A DNA stretch of 32,000 nucleotides from Halogeometricum borinquense DSM 11551 (GTDB lineage Archaea > Halobacteriota > Halobacteria > Halobacteriales > Haloferacaceae), in assembly GCF_000172995.2 (NCBI RefSeq), contig NC_014729.1, positions 900,001 to 932,000 on the forward strand. The letters run 5' to 3'. Shown here in pieces: positions 5,236 to 22,504 of the stretch. The position numbers and the translations under genes are program-made. The notes under the pieces are model-generated. The model saw only the letters and a list, made by a program, of their open reading frames with translations, was not told where the DNA came from and searched no databases. Numbering within the stretch: position 1 is the first letter of the stretch; the number at the start of each line of letters is the position of its first letter.

Positions 5236-6708
5236 TCAGAGGTCGCCGCGGTCGAACACGGCCACGTCGCACTCGACTTCTCGAATCCGCTCGAACGTCG
5301 GCGGAGCGACGAACCGCGAGGCCGCAGAGCGGTTCTGACTCGATCCGAGGACGACGAGGTCGTACGACTCCGCGTTTGCGGTGAGGAACGACTGCACATC
5401 GGAGCGCGAGACGCGCGTCTCAAGCGGCGTGTCAACCGTTTCGACGAGGTTCGCCAGCCGCGTCTCGGCCCGCCGCCGCTCTACCTCGCTGTTGATACAG
5501 GTCGTGACGCTCACGACGCCGTTGCGCCCGGTGAGGCGGGTCGCGAAATCGATCATCGCGTGGGCGGTGTCACCCGGCCGCGACACCAACACGAGGATCC
5601 GCTTCCAGCGCCGCGTCTCACACACTGAGCGAAACGCCACCGCGTCCATCGGACTGCGGAAGATACCACGGACGTAGTCCGAGAGCAAGCCGCGGTCTTC
5701 CTCGTAGGGCGTTACGATGAGGTCACAGTTGGCGTTCTGTGCGGACTGAATCGTCGTCGAAAGCGGGTCGCCCGCGGCGACGACGACTTCGCAGGGAACA
5801 CCGACGTGGGTGCGGATGTCGGCGGCACACGACTCCAACTCTGCGACCATTTCGTCCGCTTCGACCGGGAGGTTGTCATCGTCGTCACCGTCACTCGTAG
5901 CGATATCGACCGCCTCGGTTTCGGGCGATTGCCCGGGATCCGACTCGTTGACGATGCCGAGTAACACCACTTTCCCGGCGTCGTGGGCGGCGGCGAGGCG
6001 CGAGCCGAACAGGGCCGTCCGCTCGGCGTCTTCGCCGCGCATCGGAATGAGGACGTGGTCGTCGCCGCGAACCGTCTCGTAGAGGTACTGTGCGCGTTCC
6101 TCGTAGAACTCCTCGCGCCAGACGACGAACGCGCCCGCGACGATCAGCGAGGCGAGAAAGATGTTGACGACGTACGCGACGGCACTCTGTGTCTGCGAGA
6201 GTTCAGTCGCCGGATTGGAAACGAGCGTCAGCAGCGCGGTCGAGAACGCCGATGGTGCCTCTACGCCCGCACCCCACGTGACGACCCCGGTGAGGAATAC
6301 CGCCAGTACGGCGCTCTCGGGATGTGGTATCGTTGTCTGCGGCGCGCCGTACACCATCTCGGTGAACCCCACCGACGCGAGACCGCACACCGCACCGGTA
6401 GTGAGGCTGCCGACGAACTTCTTCGGACTCGCGTACTGTCCCTCGGGGTCGGAGAACAGCGTGTACGTCCCCGACGCCAACGGCGGGAACAGGAGGTACG
6501 AGAGTTTATCGATAGTGGCGGTGAGGAACGTGACGAACCCGATGAGAAGCGGGACAAAAAGCAGGATCGAGAGATGCAGTAAGTTGTTCGTGTTCTCTAG
6601 CCAGCGACGAAACTCCGACAGTTCCCGGCGTTCGATTCGCCGGAGGCGGGCGACGAACGTGGACAGTCGGGCCACGAGGTCGGCCGCGAGTCGTCGGAGT
6701 CGAATCAT
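5236..6708 (-). CDS. HPP-family membrane domain fused to tandem universal stress protein (USP) domains
   Basis: The N-terminal polytopic region LLFPPLASGTYTLFSDPEGQYASPKKFVGSL...VEAPSAFSTALL resembles the HPP family. The C-terminal half has two USP-like alpha/beta units (VVLLGIVNES..., ILVLVSRPGDTAHAM...VVLGSSQ). The ATG at 6706-6708 is only 2 nt after the udp stop. Confidence 0.75.
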   Translation of the reverse strand: MIRLRRLAADLVARLSTFVARLRRIERRELSEFRRWLENTNNLLHLSILLFVPLLIGFVTFLTATIDKLSYLLFPPLASGTYTLFSDPEGQYASPKKFVGSLTTGAVCGLASVGFTEMVYGAPQTTIPHPESAVLAVFLTGVVTWGAGVEAPSAFSTALLTLVSNPATELSQTQSAVAYVVNIFLASLIVAGAFVVWREEFYEERAQYLYETVRGDDHVLIPMRGEDAERTALFGSRLAAAHDAGKVVLLGIVNESDPGQSPETEAVDIATSDGDDDDNLPVEADEMVAELESCAADIRTHVGVPCEVVVAAGDPLSTTIQSAQNANCDLIVTPYEEDRGLLSDYVRGIFRSPMDAVAFRSVCETRRWKRILVLVSRPGDTAHAMIDFATRLTGRNGVVSVTTCINSEVERRRAETRLANLVETVDTPLETRVSRSDVQSFLTANAESYDLVVLGSSQNRSAASRFVAPPTFERIREVECDVAVFDRGDL

Positions 6709-6710
6709 GC

Positions 6711-7439
6711 CTACGCGAGCGTCGTAACCGCGTCTAGTGTCAGCGTGATCGCTCGCTCGACGTTATTCTTCGCCTTCTCGGGGAGTTCCTCGTCGGAGTC
6801 TGCGCCTTTCTGCGTCCCTTTCACGAGATTGCCGTCAACAGTACAGATTGCACCCGCACGGAGGCCCCTGCGTCGCGCAAGGGAGAACACCGTAGCCGCC
6901 TCCATCTCGATGCCGAGGAGACCGGCCTCGTTCCACGCTTCGACGTAGTCGTCGGACTCGTTGTAGAACGCGTCGTCGGAGACGATGGGTCCGACGTGGA
7001 CCTCCTCGTCGTTCGCTTCCGCCGAATCGACAAGGGAGGTGAGTACGTCGTAGTCCGGCACTGCCGGGATAACTTTCGACTCGTAGCGTCTGGTGGTTCC
7101 TTCCTCCTTTGCGGCACCCGTCGCCACGATCATGTCGCCGATTTCGACGTGTTCCTGCAAGGCACCGATAGTGCCGACGCGGATGAACGTCTCGACACCG
7201 ACGCGCGACAGTTCCTCGATAGCGATAGCGGCGGAGGGACAGCCGATACCCGTCGAGCAGATCGTGAGCGGGACGCCATCGTACGTCGCGTTAACAACCT
7301 TGTACTCTCGGTTCTGCGCGACTTCTTCGACGTTCTCACACTGCTTTGCGATGCGGTCCACACGGCCGGGGTCGCCGGGGATAAGTGCGATCTCTTCGAC
7401 GTCGCCTTCCTCGACGAGCAGATGCGGTTGCTTGGCCAT
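6711..7439 (-). CDS. udp: Uridine phosphorylase / PNP-UDP family nucleoside phosphorylase
   Basis: MAKQPHLLVEEGDVEEIALIPGDPGRVDRI...CSTGIGCPSAAIAIEEL...IEMEAA is typical of the PNP_UDP_1 family. ATG at 7437-7439. A TTTTTCAG box lies about 30 nt upstream on the minus strand. Confidence 0.88.
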   Translation of the reverse strand: MAKQPHLLVEEGDVEEIALIPGDPGRVDRIAKQCENVEEVAQNREYKVVNATYDGVPLTICSTGIGCPSAAIAIEELSRVGVETFIRVGTIGALQEHVEIGDMIVATGAAKEEGTTRRYESKVIPAVPDYDVLTSLVDSAEANDEEVHVGPIVSDDAFYNESDDYVEAWNEAGLLGIEMEAATVFSLARRRGLRAGAICTVDGNLVKGTQKGADSDEELPEKAKNNVERAITLTLDAVTTLA

Positions 7440-7635
7440 ATGTGAGCCTCACGCGATGGCCTGAAAAACGACGCGATCCGAGAAGCGACAGTCGGATTCG
7501 ACGTGATCGATGCCAACACACAAACGGATGATTTCGGCCGGTTCATCGCTCCCTAACCGATAGCGACCACAGTTTAACGTCCGTGAGAATCACTGTATCC
7601 AACTGATAACTAAGACTATTGGTGTCTTCCCACAT

Positions 7636-7895
7636 AGTGGCCGTCGAAGGCCGTTCCGCATCCGGGAAAATCCATCCCATCCCCGCCGGGCAGGCGTTTG
7701 CCCCACGTCCCCCTGCGTACGAATCCCGGGCGGAACTGTCCGGTCACCGTCCGACACACCGGCGCATCGGAGCGCGCAACGAGGCTCGGTTCGCACCGAC
7801 ACGAGTTTCCCCGGTTCACTCGCGTGTCCCCGATTCGCCATCACGGCTCTCGGCACGGTGCGTCGTCGGTGACCACTTCGGCGGTATTCCCCCTT
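7636..7895 (+). ncRNA. Candidate structured non-coding RNA or structured leader (family unresolved; may extend to about 8007)
   Basis: No credible ORF; all local ORFs are Arg/Pro/Ser-rich. Hand folding gives four elements. There is a hairpin at 7636-7655. A 17-bp interrupted long-range helix pairs 7742-7761 with 7856-7874. A hairpin lies at 7798-7828. A closing helix pairs 7664-7672 with 7883-7891. Wobble pairs favour the + strand 5 to 1. An AT-rich box at 7605-7620 lies about 26 nt upstream. Confidence 0.3.
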
Positions 7896-7899
7896 CAGC

Positions 7900-8400
7900 A
7901 TGTCACTCACACGGGAGTCGAACGGAGCAGACGTACAGCGGACTGCCCCCGAATGGCAGTTCGTCGTTGCGAGTATCGCAACGCGTCGCACGCTGGCGAT
8001 TGCGACGGTGTTCGCCGCCGCGCTCGGTTTGCTCCCGCTTTACGAGTCCGTGTGGTGGTGGGACCTGCTCACTCACACGCTCGCCGGTGCGGTCATCACC
8101 GGGTGGCTCCTCATCTCTCGCTGGCGCATCACGGCCGTCCTCCTCTTTGTCGCATGCTGTTCGGGCGCGTGGGAAGTCGCCGAATACGCGACCCCGACCT
8201 ACGTCTTCATCGCCGGAAATCCGACAGATACCGCACTCGACGTGATGTGTAACTTCGTCGGGTCGGCCACCGCCGTGGCCGCCTTCGGTCTGTATCAGTC
8301 ACGGCTTGGCCGGACCGCCGATGGCGGTCGCAGTCACAACGCCCGTCGTCCGTACAACTCCCGTCGTCCCGAATCGAACACTGCCTCGACTGATGATTGA
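7900..8400 (+). CDS. Hypothetical polytopic membrane protein (start uncertain: ATG 7900 or in-frame GTG 8008)
   Basis: TM helices (TLAIATVFAAALGLLPL, LTHTLAGAVITGWLLI, ITAVLLFVACCSGAW, FVGSATAVAAFGL). By my count GC3 is high from about 8010 onward but only about two thirds in the first 36 codons, which also contain three stem-loops. The C-terminal 40 aa are basic and low-complexity. Confidence 0.5.
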   Translation: MSLTRESNGADVQRTAPEWQFVVASIATRRTLAIATVFAAALGLLPLYESVWWWDLLTHTLAGAVITGWLLISRWRITAVLLFVACCSGAWEVAEYATPTYVFIAGNPTDTALDVMCNFVGSATAVAAFGLYQSRLGRTADGGRSHNARRPYNSRRPESNTASTDD

Positions 8401-8578
8401 CGGCCTGTGTGAAATCCTCACTGCGAGCGTGTGCTACCCCCGAACTCGGTTTCGAGAAGCTCATCTGTTTTTCACGTTCGACTGCATGTCCCTCAAAACG
8501 GAATATCCGGTGACATGAACGCTCTCAGCGCTGAAAATCGGGGCGTTGCTATTATGTATCCCAACCTCGCAGGCACAG

Positions 8579-8908
8579 ATGAGAATGCGGGACAGATCGC
8601 ATCTGAACATCGATAATCGGGCGAGAGTGTGGGGGCACATTCTCGAGGCACTGTGGCGTCGTGGAAACGTCGAAGCCGAAAGTATCGCAACTGAGTTCGA
8701 ACTAAGCGTCCGCGAGATACGTAGTATCTGCTCGGAGATGGCGGATTTGGGGTGGTTAGAACTTCGAGCGGAGAGTCAAAAGTGGGTTGCTGGCGAGTCT
8801 GCGGACGAACTGCTGAGCAGTTATCCGGCGCTCAAAGCTGATGTCGAAGCAAGCGGTACTTCACACCGTGAACACGAGTCGGGTCGTCAAGAGCAGCTCG
8901 CCCATTAG
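8579..8908 (+). CDS. Small winged-helix-like DNA-binding protein (hypothetical) in an AT-richer islet
   Basis: ATG at 8579 (the track start 8546 is a TTG). The segment RVWGHILEALWRRGNVEAESIATEFELSVREIRSICSEMADLGWLEL looks like an HTH plus wing. Codon usage is visibly less GC3-biased than in neighbouring genes. Confidence 0.45.
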   Translation: MRMRDRSHLNIDNRARVWGHILEALWRRGNVEAESIATEFELSVREIRSICSEMADLGWLELRAESQKWVAGESADELLSSYPALKADVEASGTSHREHESGRQEQLAH

Positions 8909-8980
8909 CTGACTCGCTGGTTCGCTGGGGTGTCCGTTTCTGTGAATTAGTTCGTGAGTACAGAACTGGGACGGCGGCCG

Positions 8981-9490
8981 CTACAAGCCTGCCGTGAGCA
9001 GTGGCAACACCACGACCAACGTCAGGCCGAACACGAACGACGACCGTAGCCACTGCCCTCTGACTGCGGTCGAACGCTCCTCGTAGACGCGCTTGCCCGC
9101 CCTCGGGAGGACGAGATGTGCGAAGAAGCTGTAGACAAACCCGACGACGACCACCGTCGCAACCGCGTGTGGAAGTACCAGCATCGATCCGACGGAGACG
9201 AGTGGCGGGAGTAGTGCCGCGAGCGCCGTGTACGCGACAGCGTAGAGAATACCCGCGAGGACGCCAGCGCCGTAGTGCGTGACGTATGCGTCACCCTCCG
9301 ACACTTCGTCAGGCGTGGTACCTCGGAGGATCGAAGCGGCGATATAGGCGGGTGTGAACCCATCTTCCTGCCTCGACATCGGGACGCCCATGACGAGGGC
9401 GGCGACGAAACCCGAGAATGCGCTCAAGACGACGAAGACGAGCATACTCTCGAGTGACCCGGAAAACGGACCGGGTAGTGTGAACGACAT
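8981..9490 (-). CDS. Hypothetical membrane protein (4 TM)
   Basis: ATG at 9488-9490. Hydrophobic helices alternate with short charged loops. GC3-rich codons. Confidence 0.6.
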   Translation of the reverse strand: MSFTLPGPFSGSLESMLVFVVLSAFSGFVAALVMGVPMSRQEDGFTPAYIAASILRGTTPDEVSEGDAYVTHYGAGVLAGILYAVAYTALAALLPPLVSVGSMLVLPHAVATVVVVGFVYSFFAHLVLPRAGKRVYEERSTAVRGQWLRSSFVFGLTLVVVLPLLTAGL

Positions 9491-9533
9491 TAACCCACCT
9501 ACGAGGGGGTGAGGGAAAAGCGGTCGGTCGATA

Positions 9534-10397
9534 TCACTCGCCGAGGAACGCCTCTATCTCATTCCACGAGAGTCCTTCACGCGCGCCGGGGACGCGCGAG
9601 ATGAACGCCCCACAGGCGTTAGCGACGGCTAAGGCACGTTCGAAGTCGTCTCCGGCAACGCGCGAAGCGATGAATCCCGCAGCGAACGCGTCGCCCGCGC
9701 CAGTCGTATCGACGGCGTCGATTGGATAACCGGGATGTGCGACGCGACCGTCCGGCCGTCGAACCTCCGCACCGTCGGGTCCGTGTTTGAGGACGAGCGT
9801 CTGGCCGTCGAGGTCGAACGCGTCGAGAGCGAGGGCGGCTTCGCGGTCGTTCAAGAACAGGTAATCAACATCGGAGATCATCACTTCGTATCCGCGGTCG
9901 CCGATGCGCCTGCCGGGGTCGAAACTGACCGGGACGCCGACGCTCGCCGCTCGGTCTGCGAGTTGCTTGGCCGTCTCCGGCCGTTGGCTCGTGAGATGGA
10001 GATGGTCTGCGTCCTGCAGCACTGATTCGGGGAGGTCCGCGGCGTCGAACGCCTCGTTCGCGCCCGGACACCCTAATACCATCACCTCACCAGTGGGCTG
10101 GACGACGATGTACTTCGTCGTCGTCTCCAGTTCGTCCGTGGTGACGACGTGGTCGCAATCGACGCCCTCTGCGACTAACTCCGCACGCGCGGCGCGTCCG
10201 TGTTCGTCGTCGCCGACGCTCCCCAGTAAGGAGACATCCAGACCGAGGTCAGAGAGACCGACGGCGACGTTGGAAGCGCTTCCGCCGCCCGCCGTAGAGC
10301 GGGATTCGACGGTCGCTTCACCGTCGAGTTCGGGGATCGAATCGACACGGAGGGTCACGTCCCAGTTGACGTGACCAGCGCAGACGACGCGTGGCAT
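9534..10397 (-). CDS. PfkB-family carbohydrate/nucleoside kinase (ribokinase-like)
   Basis: ATG at 10395-10397 (MPRVVCAGHVNWDV...). PfkB motifs GGSASNVAVGLS and DTTGAGDAFAAGF are present. The track ORF is over-extended upstream into Arg-rich sequence. Confidence 0.87.
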   Translation of the reverse strand: MPRVVCAGHVNWDVTLRVDSIPELDGEATVESRSTAGGGSASNVAVGLSDLGLDVSLLGSVGDDEHGRAARAELVAEGVDCDHVVTTDELETTTKYIVVQPTGEVMVLGCPGANEAFDAADLPESVLQDADHLHLTSQRPETAKQLADRAASVGVPVSFDPGRRIGDRGYEVMISDVDYLFLNDREAALALDAFDLDGQTLVLKHGPDGAEVRRPDGRVAHPGYPIDAVDTTGAGDAFAAGFIASRVAGDDFERALAVANACGAFISRVPGAREGLSWNEIEAFLGE

Positions 10398-10500
10398 AGT
10401 CAGATCAACATACTTCTGCCGGCACCTACAAAAAGCCAACTGCAGATCCGGGGGCGGTGGCAAGCGTCTCAACGACTTGCCGTGCCGAGCGGCGACTCGA

Positions 10501-21352: not shown

Positions 21353-22504
21353 CTACGAGATTTTCACGTCGCCGTTTTCCGACTGGACGCGGAGCGTCGG
21401 ACCACCGTCACCGACGGTACCCGACACGTGTTCGTCCGAGACTTCTGAGTCGTCGAGCGTCGCAGAGACGGATACGTCGCCGTGAGCGGTCTTCCCGACG
21501 ACGCGGGCGTTGAGTGACTCACCGAGCGACGCCCGGGCATCACCGTTTTCCGTCTCGATACGGGTATCAGACCGCAGGGCGGAGACCTCGGCGTCTACAT
21601 CCCCGTTCTTCGAGCTCACACCGAGGATACCGTCGCACGACTCCGTTCGCGCGTCCCCGTCCGTCGTGTGGACCCGAACGAATCCCTTGACACCGATGGC
21701 AGTCGCATCGCCGTCCTCGGTTCGAACATCGGCGTCTCCTGTCGTCTTGCGGGCGGTGGCGTCGCCGTCCTTGGTTCGAACATCGGCGTCCCCTGTCGTC
21801 TTGCGGGCGGTGGCGTCGCCGTCCTTGGTTCGAACGACGACGTTACCCGTCGTTTCGTGGGCCATCGCATCGCCGTCCTCGGTTCGAACATCGGCGTCTC
21901 CTGTTGTCTTGCGGGCGGTGGCGTCGCCGTCCTTGGTTCGAACGACGACGTTACCCGTCGTTTCGCGGGCCGTCGCATCGCCGTCCTCGGTTCGAACGAC
22001 GAGGGACTCGCTCGAATCCGAGTCGGAGCGACTCCCGGGTCCGACGAGGTCCTCCACGAGCACGTCACCGTTCTCCACTCGCGCCGATTCGACAACGATG
22101 GACGGATGGGCTTCGACCCGAAGTTGGACCGTCGGCAACGACCACAGTCTGATTCCGTCCTCGGTCTGGGTTCGCACGGTAGCCCGACCCTCTTCCGCCG
22201 TTGCTGAGAACGCCACCGCAGAGAGCGAACTGAGTATCGAGGACGACTTCTTTTCGACGTGCGCCCGAACGGTCCGCTCAGAAAGGTCGTCGTTCGGCGT
22301 GACCGTCACGTTACCGACATCGGCGGCAACCACTACTGATTGTACGTCCGTCAGGGTCTTTTCGTCCGTATCTCGCTTGCCGACGAACGGCCTTACTTTA
22401 CCGGTACAGCCCGACAGTCCGCCGATTCCGATAGCAGCAGCCGATAGAAATGCGCGGCGGCGGAGGGAGGGACTGCGAGAAACGTCAGTGGTAGCGTCGT
22501 CCAT
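21353..22504 (-). CDS. Tat-dependent lipoprotein with repetitive beta-helix-like domain (DUF4097 / putative adhesin-like)
   Basis: ATG at 22502-22504. Twin-arginine motif SLRRRAFLSAAAIG followed by a lipobox LSGC. The rest consists of repeated rungs of the type VRTxDGDATARxTTGD, ending GDVSVS...NGDVKIS. An ATATAATAC box lies about 75-85 nt upstream on the minus strand. Confidence 0.78.
   Translation of the reverse strand: MDDATTDVSRSPSLRRRAFLSAAAIGIGGLSGCTGKVRPFVGKRDTDEKTLTDVQSVVVAADVGNVTVTPNDDLSERTVRAHVEKKSSSILSSLSAVAFSATAEEGRATVRTQTEDGIRLWSLPTVQLRVEAHPSIVVESARVENGDVLVEDLVGPGSRSDSDSSESLVVRTEDGDATARETTGNVVVRTKDGDATARKTTGDADVRTEDGDAMAHETTGNVVVRTKDGDATARKTTGDADVRTKDGDATARKTTGDADVRTEDGDATAIGVKGFVRVHTTDGDARTESCDGILGVSSKNGDVDAEVSALRSDTRIETENGDARASLGESLNARVVGKTAHGDVSVSATLDDSEVSDEHVSGTVGDGGPTLRVQSENGDVKIS
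21702..21997 (-). repeat. In-frame tandem repeat: 54-nt unit x about 5.5, organised as a 108-nt higher-order repeat
   Basis: Units start at 21702, 21756, 21810, 21864 and 21918, plus a partial sixth. Units 21810-21863 and 21918-21971 differ at a single base by my reading (21858 t versus 21966 c). Each unit encodes an 18-aa rung. Confidence 0.9.

Follow-up and report, generated by a model that had tools for sequence, protein, structure and literature searches.

A Candidate Structured RNA Leader Upstream of a Membrane-Protein Gene in Halogeometricum

The Spacer Between udp and a Membrane-Protein Gene

We analyzed a stretch of 32,000 nucleotides (nt) from Halogeometricum borinquense DSM 11551 (hereafter the window), in which the uridine phosphorylase family gene udp and a gene for a membrane protein are divergently transcribed. 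The two are separated by 460 nt, from the udp start at 7439 to the membrane-protein ATG at 7900, and within this spacer lies a plus-strand element of ~261 nt (7639–7899) that is very likely a selected, structured RNA belonging to no described family (Table 1). The original prediction, made from the letters of the window, had reported a gap of roughly 460 nt before the next coding sequence, which agrees with this distance. It had described the region as downstream of udp, however, and this was incorrect: since the genes are divergent, the spacer lies upstream of both and forms a divergent promoter region.

Udp proteins are 80–92% identical within the Haloferacaceae. The product of the membrane-protein gene is 100% identical to the hypothetical protein C499_02339 of H. 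borinquense DSM 11551; it is named VanZ-like at its source and carries a precomputed Pfam tag, PF09997/DUF2238. A search of the protein and two of its homologues against the current Pfam-A with hmmscan returned nothing better than E = 0.05. As the DUF2238 tag could not be reproduced, the family assignment of this protein is shaky. The name DUF2238/YjdF might also suggest a connection with the yjdF riboswitch of bacteria; this was dropped for the same reason, and because the YjdF associated with that riboswitch is presumably a different family (DUF2992).

Table 1. Features of the spacer and its flanking genes (positions in the window).
Feature	Position	Strand	Remarks
udp, uridine phosphorylase family	6711–7439	minus	PF01048, E = 7e-47
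T-run GTTTTTC, probable udp TATA box	7463–7469	minus	~27 nt from the udp ATG; role predicted
Boxes CCTAAC and GTTTAAC, upstream of the promoter box	7552–7557 and 7572–7578		invariant or nearly so in the alignment
Box GATAACTAAG, putative TATA/promoter element of the membrane-protein gene	7605–7614	plus	nearly invariant, 14 loci
Predicted transcription start, G after a pyrimidine	7639 (± a few nt)	plus	predicted from identity jump and box spacing
P1, 5′ strand GCCGUCGA	7640–7647	plus	pairs with 7878–7885, 8 bp
Arm I: P2 (7650–7667/7724–7739), large C-rich internal loop, hairpin P3 (~7688–7712)	7650–7739	plus	
C-rich motif 1 CCAUCCCAUCCCC, arm-I internal loop	7672–7684	plus	unpaired probability 0.74–0.99
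Arm II: P4 (7742–7757/7860–7874), inner helices, apical hairpin (7798–7805/7818–7827)	7742–7874	plus	
P1, 3′ strand UCGGCGGU	7878–7885	plus	partner of 7640–7647
Unpaired 3′ tail AUUCCCCCUUCAGC, followed by AUG	7886–7899	plus	
Membrane-protein gene, 166 amino acids, starting directly after the element	7900–8400	plus	ATG and first codons conserved

Sequence Conservation and Coding Potential

Relatives were collected by scanning species-representative genomes with Udp, which gave 80 loci. Two further species carry the divergent pair of udp and the membrane-protein gene: Halogeometricum limi (L001), where the spacer is 460 nt long, and H. pallidum (L004), where it is 444 nt. A protein search with the membrane protein yielded 11 clusters of close homologues only, from which we obtained contigs of Halogeometricum sp. 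S1BR25-6 (L081) and of metagenomic lineages (L082–L093, L214). Spacers in other H. borinquense assemblies are identical to that of the window and add no information. The sample corresponds to about nine distinct lineages, which group into four or five clades.

The spacer aligns across its full length, with a sharp 5′ boundary of conservation at 7639. Within 7639–7887, the window shares an identity of 0.69–0.74 with its relatives, compared to 0.33–0.49 (7481–7545) and 0.26–0.48 (7616–7638) in the flanking spacer and 0.51–0.57 at four-fold degenerate sites of udp. The element is thus conserved beyond the synonymous level and, to judge from these comparisons, is under purifying selection.

This constraint does not act on a protein. 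The GC content of 7650–7900 is 65–71%, with an excess of C (GC skew of about −0.2), as against 47–56% in 7500–7650. From 7660 to 7900 GC is flat over the three codon phases, and both flanking genes have a strong periodicity. Moreover, 34 of the 39 distinct indel runs that separate the homologues have lengths not divisible by three, as would not be expected under constraint on a reading frame, and none of the overlapping open reading frames (ORFs) in the spacer resembles an acidic haloarchaeal protein. A protein-coding gene or pseudogene was ruled out by the absent codon periodicity together with the frame-breaking indels, so the GC-rich, non-coding stretch of the original prediction held up. 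Gene callers nevertheless place spurious plus-strand ORFs in or across the spacer of metagenome contigs (L089, 1–270; L090, 2–265; L092, 2–193). In L089, the membrane protein is called from a GTG at 516, 18 nt upstream and inside the leader tail (P0005, 164 amino acids). Because high GC keeps frames open, annotation of this spacer region is unreliable.

Secondary Structure and Compensatory Changes

Folded as a single sequence, the element differs only modestly from dinucleotide shuffles (z = −2.4 for the plus and −2.6 for the minus strand), and it is the comparison with relatives that lifts the structure signal above chance. For ten sequences aligned with plain MAFFT (alignment A3), RNAalifold gave −65.4 kcal/mol, with z = −6.4 for the plus strand relative to column shuffles in which each column's phylogeny was kept. 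As a control, the adjacent coding sequence from the same ten species gave z of −2.8 to −0.05, at a mean identity of 0.73–0.78 vs. 0.78 for the element.

In A3, 93% of the cells of the consensus form standard pairs, and 12 consensus pairs change on both sides; shuffled alignments reach 5.0 ± 1.3 (0 of 500 reach 12) and slid partners 1–4. However, when all columns were compared with one another, 418 unrelated pairs looked compensatory because the sequences fall into clades, and raw covariation counts were therefore not relied on. Counted by lineage (L001, the window, L091, L082 and within clades), ~12–14 compensatory changes are distributed over P1, P2, P3, P4 and the apical hairpin; these were counted in a model-fitted alignment that is biased toward structure, and most of them are also present in A3.

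The predicted fold is a three-way junction closed by helix P1, from which two long arms emerge, and P1 and both arms were recovered in 11 of 11 homologues folded separately. P1 has a pair probability of at least 0.9 in all 11. At its fifth pair, one clade has C-G, another clade and L001 have U-A, and the window and L085 have U·G, an intermediate of the other two states. The first pair of P1 is A-U in L085 and G·U in the ten other sequences. Arm I is present in every single-sequence minimum free energy (MFE) fold, with P2 paired in 82–94% across relatives and compensatory changes in L001, the window and L091. Its internal loop contains UUCCAUCCCAUCCCCCC, the most conserved stretch of the element. 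In arm II, P4 is paired in 89–92% in relatives, again with compensatory changes, while the inner helices are less well conserved and the loop of the apical hairpin is C-rich (UUUCCCCGGUUC). The 3′ tail and the AUG are unpaired in all folds. GGGA (7664–7667) could pair with UCCC of the tail, a pairing that was not consistently supported on inspection of the relatives.

A natural variant on the metagenome contig ERR11420197_3824 (L085, 253–471) has ~100 nt inside arm II replaced by a short loop and keeps P1, arm I, a P4-like hairpin and the C-run of the tail, as a modular RNA would be expected to do. Downstream, this contig encodes an acetyltransferase in place of the winged helix-turn-helix (wHTH) gene found elsewhere.

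The five-element hand fold of the original prediction was borne out in part. Its long helix, 7742–7761 with 7856–7874, corresponds to consensus P4, and its hairpin at 7798–7828 (GACACG...CGUGUC) is the conserved apical hairpin of arm II. The other three elements can be traced as complementarity in the window, and two of the proposed helices are specific to it: the hairpin at 7636–7655 can be drawn there but is in neither the MFE fold nor the consensus and is impossible in five relatives (GGCCGCCGAACACCG), its 5′ strand instead forming the conserved long-range P1 with 7878–7885, whereas the helix 7664–7672/7883–7891 and the hairpin 7726–7743 reflect complementarity only and are likewise absent from both. 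P1 and the whole of the arm-I helix P2 had been missed.

With respect to strand, the minus strand would have A-C mismatches in place of the G·U and U·G pairs of P1 and of one further pair, which is U·G in 8 of 10 sequences. These pairs and the orientation of the promoter suggest that the plus strand is the transcribed one.

C-Rich Motifs in Single-Stranded Regions

Each homologue contains three to six runs of ≥4 C, and runs of ≥4 G are absent in 10 of 11. Four of the C-runs are conserved in position, two of them in arm I (internal loop and P3 loop), one in the apical loop of arm II and one in the 3′ tail, each in the form (A/U)U followed by C4–7. Their unpaired probability is mostly 0.7–1.0, compared to an average of 0.34–0.39 over the whole RNA, and it reaches 0.97–1.0 for the tail run in all homologues that carry it. 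This fourth run (7889–7893) ends 6 nt before the AUG, and at 5–9 nt in the other homologues with a tail run; no Shine-Dalgarno-like sequence is present in the tail, and neither a T-run nor a terminator-like site occurs in the 14 nt between P1 and the ATG. Individual runs are missing in some lineages: the tail run in L001, the P3-loop run in L091 and L092, and the arm-II loop run in L085. TTCCCCC was also considered as a genome-wide signal and rejected, with 2 matches in the window vs. 3.3 expected; its complement is likewise not enriched elsewhere in the window.

Promoter Boxes and the Predicted Transcription Start

The udp gene appears to have a promoter of its own, as the block GAAAAACGACGCGGTCC around its T-run is conserved in all relatives. 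Given that the T-run lies ~27 nt from the ATG, the udp mRNA would be leaderless and the remaining spacer would not be needed for udp.

On the other side of the spacer, the AT-rich box that had been proposed upstream of the element is real: GATAACTAAG is the best-conserved motif of the whole spacer. In Halogeometricum, 24 poorly conserved nt separate it from the first conserved base of the element. The same gene pair occurs, with much shorter spacers, in four Haloferax species (L005, L007, L009, and L017), where the counterpart box GAGTAACTAAC precedes the orthologous ATG by 25–26 poorly conserved nt and the ~260-nt element is absent. The Haloferax spacing is that of a leaderless promoter. Because the same box is followed at nearly the same distance by the ATG in Haloferax and by the element in Halogeometricum, the element is best read as a 5′ leader. 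The presence of the pair and the box without the ~260 nt would most simply reflect an insertion in Halogeometricum, placed after the start site and ahead of the start codon, or alternatively a deletion in Haloferax.

The two boxes further upstream, CCTAAC and GTTTAAC, may be binding sites of a regulator or include an alternative TATA box. They have a TAAC core in common with GATAACTAAG, at spacings of ~21 and ~33 nt, and of the four Haloferax loci, three (L005, L007, and L009) keep CCTAAC and the last box. The three TAAC-core boxes could be regulator sites that serve the divergent udp and membrane-protein promoters.

Distribution and Database Searches

Two models were derived from the alignment, a hidden Markov model (HMM) and a covariance model, and they detected the element once in the window. 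Among the fetched loci it was found only in those of Halogeometricum type, always directly upstream of the same orthologous gene, and neither model found anything in the other ~70 Haloferacaceae udp loci. There were no blastn matches to the element in the plasmid database. The pattern GGCCGYCGAANNCNG..YCCATCCCC gave three matches in viral contigs, all attributable to chance, and at least 120 stretches in a metagenome DNA-pattern scan, again all chance and none with an nhmmer E ≤ 0.1.

Rfam 15 produced no matches at the gathering score over the whole 32-kb window. At E ≤ 10, the region 7400–8000 matched only MEG3_2, at 14.7 bits vs. a threshold of 60 (noise), and at E ≤ 1 eight homologous loci gave only a microRNA noise match located elsewhere. 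Families without a match include Archaea_SRP, RNaseP_arch, fluoride, TPP, PyrR, and yjdF. The failure of the original prediction to find motifs of the signal recognition particle (SRP) RNA or of RNase P RNA is thus in line with the covariance models even at E ≤ 10, and its option of a known RNA that had escaped recognition by eye is ruled out to the extent that Rfam 15 covers known RNAs. C/D-box and H/ACA RNAs, bulge-helix-bulge introns and kink-turns were inspected by eye and rejected, with no conserved box motifs found. The alternative option offered there, an undescribed structured RNA or leader of the membrane-protein gene, is supported by the conservation, the alifold z-score, the fold common to all 11 homologues and the compensatory changes; the alignment and covariation check it had proposed for relatives returned a conserved fold with about a dozen such lineage-specific changes. 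Overall, we consider the element a candidate for a structured cis-regulatory leader or non-coding RNA motif whose family is not described in Rfam 15.

One further locus deserves mention. In Halopelagius fulvigenes (L021, 3395–3830), the promoter box GGTAACTAAC precedes a GC-rich sequence of ~270 nt that contains eight C-runs, has P1-like ends and is accompanied by a CCCCCTTTTCC stretch. The locus is without the membrane-protein gene, and the next gene encodes a convergent membrane protein of 182 amino acids. As a diverged homologue, this stretch would favor a stand-alone RNA; however, the covariance model assigns it only 6 bits, so we treat it as a doubtful remnant and do not count it as evidence of an independent RNA.

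Surrounding Genes

Downstream of udp, the minus-strand gene at 5236–6708 encodes a 490-amino acid fusion of an HPP-type transmembrane region and a universal stress protein domain. Its synteny with udp extends over most of the 80 Haloferacaceae loci, more widely than that of the membrane-protein gene. On the other side (8546–10472, and in the gene tables of L081 and L082) are genes for a small wHTH protein, a 169-amino acid membrane protein and a PfkB-family kinase; the conserved neighborhood of relatives also has a DeoC-family aldolase. Taken with udp, this neighborhood resembles a nucleoside/ribose catabolism cluster and may hint at the physiological role of the gene that the leader would control. 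Further away, a tandem repeat at 21703–22002 has a period of 54 nt, super-periods of 108 and 162 nt, and ~5.4 copies with 81–90% matches. As 54 is a multiple of three, this repeat may lie within a coding region.

Interpretation and Alternative Explanations

On balance, we favor the view, though without great confidence, that the element is a cis-acting structured 5′ leader of the membrane-protein mRNA. Transcription would start ~24 nt after GATAACTAAG, near G7639, and read through a leader of 261 nt into the gene at 7900–8400. The first eight bases would pair with 7878–7885 as P1, closing the three-way junction with its two arms, and this scaffold would present up to four (A/U)U-C4–7 motifs in single-stranded loops. 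The last of them would sit 6 nt before the AUG, in the usual place of a ribosome-binding signal. A factor that recognizes the C-motifs could bind the displayed sites, the one beside the start codon among them, and set the translation or the stability of the downstream message in cis; the factor might be an RNA-binding protein or a G-rich RNA, or else a small ligand held by the junction. More speculatively, and with rather low probability, the leader would sense a metabolite or ion, or a poly-C-binding regulator, through its conserved junction and C-loops, and so control a membrane protein genetically linked to nucleoside catabolism (udp and the PfkB-type kinase and DeoC-type aldolase neighbors). 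Such a sensing leader would have originated as an insertion in a gene that had been leaderless before.

A number of observations count against this interpretation. TAACTAA in the promoter box is a poor match to TTWT, the haloarchaeal TATA consensus (PMC4983044), and the alternative TATA candidates GTTTAAC and GATATT would shift the start 18–35 nt upstream; with starts near 7604 or 7621, the element would still be predicted to remain within the leader. The start site, the strand and the co-transcription of element and gene in Halogeometricum are all deduced from sequence. In addition, shared ancestry among the few lineages and clades sampled inflates raw covariation counts, and the minus strand folds at least as well as the plus strand (alifold z = −6.9). 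The element is confined to a single locus in a single genus and does not recur in the manner of typical riboswitches. An expression platform was not identified: a terminator-like site and a Shine-Dalgarno sequence were looked for, and neither is present. Any ligand or protein partner, and the mechanism itself, are hypothetical, and the present data do not distinguish a leader from a separate small RNA (sRNA).

Such an sRNA would be C-rich, stand-alone or processed, made from the same promoter and freed ahead of the ATG by termination or processing, and it would act in trans as a sponge for a C-binding protein or as a seed for G-rich targets. We regard this as unlikely, if worth taking seriously. 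The four conserved, displayed C-runs and the depletion of G-runs would fit, as would the compact, closed architecture in which P1 pairs the 5′ and 3′ ends, and L021 keeps the box and a C-run-rich stretch with P1-like ends without the membrane-protein gene. Yet P1 ends only 14 nt from the ATG with no T-run or terminator in between, the element always lies directly upstream of the same gene, the homology of the L021 stretch is doubtful at 6 bits, and neither TTCCCCC nor its complement is enriched elsewhere in the window.

The absence of the ~260 nt from a Haloferax locus that has the gene pair and the box, the limitation to one lineage, and the resemblance of P1 to terminal inverted repeats of 8–10 bp could also point to a passive relic without a regulatory role, i.e., a decayed gene or an insertion similar to a miniature inverted-repeat transposable element (MITE) with P1 as its terminal repeats. 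This explanation seems improbable, as the element is conserved above synonymous sites and far above the flanking spacer, and its internal helices are maintained by compensatory changes. It is also single-copy in the window, absent from the ~90 other Haloferacaceae loci, the plasmids and the viral contigs searched, and shows neither a visible target-site duplication nor a coding signal. Least probable, in our assessment, is that the conservation acts on DNA, as an extended divergent-promoter region, or on a G-rich minus-strand RNA, even though the minus strand gives an equal or better alifold score and several conserved boxes of the spacer resemble factor binding sites. Those boxes lie at 7552–7614, outside the element, and for udp there is a separate conserved T-run at a distance of 27 nt from the udp start codon. 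Conservation within the element tracks the pairing of strands 240 nt from each other, a pattern not accounted for by DNA-binding sites. A minus-strand RNA, in turn, would turn the G·U pair of P1 and the pair that is U·G in 8 of 10 sequences into A-C mismatches, and would have no AT-rich promoter-like box on the right-hand side.

Comparison With Known Systems and Implications

The proposed leader shares with riboswitches and other structured leaders a multi-helix junction, closed by P1, between a promoter and the start codon of a membrane protein, with conservation concentrated in unpaired junction and loop nucleotides and helices kept by compensatory change. A conserved, structured domain with covarying helices is thus present in what is predicted to be a 5′ untranslated region (UTR). 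In contrast to riboswitches, which are broadly distributed, the element matches no Rfam family and occurs at one locus in one genus; at ~250 nt it is larger than most aptamers, and it has no terminator or Shine-Dalgarno sequence to mask.

The CsrB/RsmZ RNAs, CsrA-regulated leaders and RsaE/RoxS likewise display a short motif repeatedly in loops, and the repeated single-stranded copies expected of an sRNA or sponge are found here, where a helical scaffold keeps them unpaired. CsrA-repressed leaders further resemble the element in having one motif copy beside the start codon. CsrB/RsmZ sequester CsrA through GGA motifs, while RsaE/RoxS use C-rich regions to pair with G-rich ribosome-binding sites. 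The motif of the element is C-rich and not GGA, and we know of no CsrA homologue or partner in haloarchaea. Because haloarchaeal mRNAs rarely use Shine-Dalgarno pairing, the target logic of RsaE is not directly transferable.

Relative to Haloferax, the element is a non-coding insert of ~250 bp bounded by inverted repeats of 8–10 bp, and in this it is similar to haloarchaeal MITEs. It differs from them in being single-copy in the window and the loci searched, in its orthologous position in all species, in its purifying selection and compensatory changes, and in showing no visible target-site duplication. Archaeal SRP and RNase P RNAs are likewise GC-rich, 250–400 nt long and built on long-range helices; unlike them, the element is in a gene-proximal leader position, occurs in one genus and has no covariance-model match at E ≤ 10.

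Leaderless messages make up 72% of the mRNAs of Haloferax volcanii, and 5′ UTRs longer than 150 nt are very rare there; the authors of that study took structured leaders to be an atypical means of control in haloarchaea (PMC4983044). Among archaeal riboswitches, only the fluoride riboswitch of Thermococcus kodakarensis has been shown experimentally (PMC8241225). Since haloarchaeal mRNAs are mostly leaderless, a conserved, structured leader of 261 nt would be unusual for the lineage. The narrow distribution limits the immediate reach of the finding, and the element remains a computational candidate at one locus in one genus. The locus offers a ready natural experiment, as the Haloferax orthologues are without the element and the metagenomic L085 is without the interior of arm II. 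If our interpretation is correct, the element would be a rare natural case of RNA-based cis-control in haloarchaea. Should it prove to be a sensing leader, it would be the first class of regulatory leader RNA to occur naturally in haloarchaea and would provide a handle on how translation starts on haloarchaeal leadered mRNAs that have no Shine-Dalgarno sequence.

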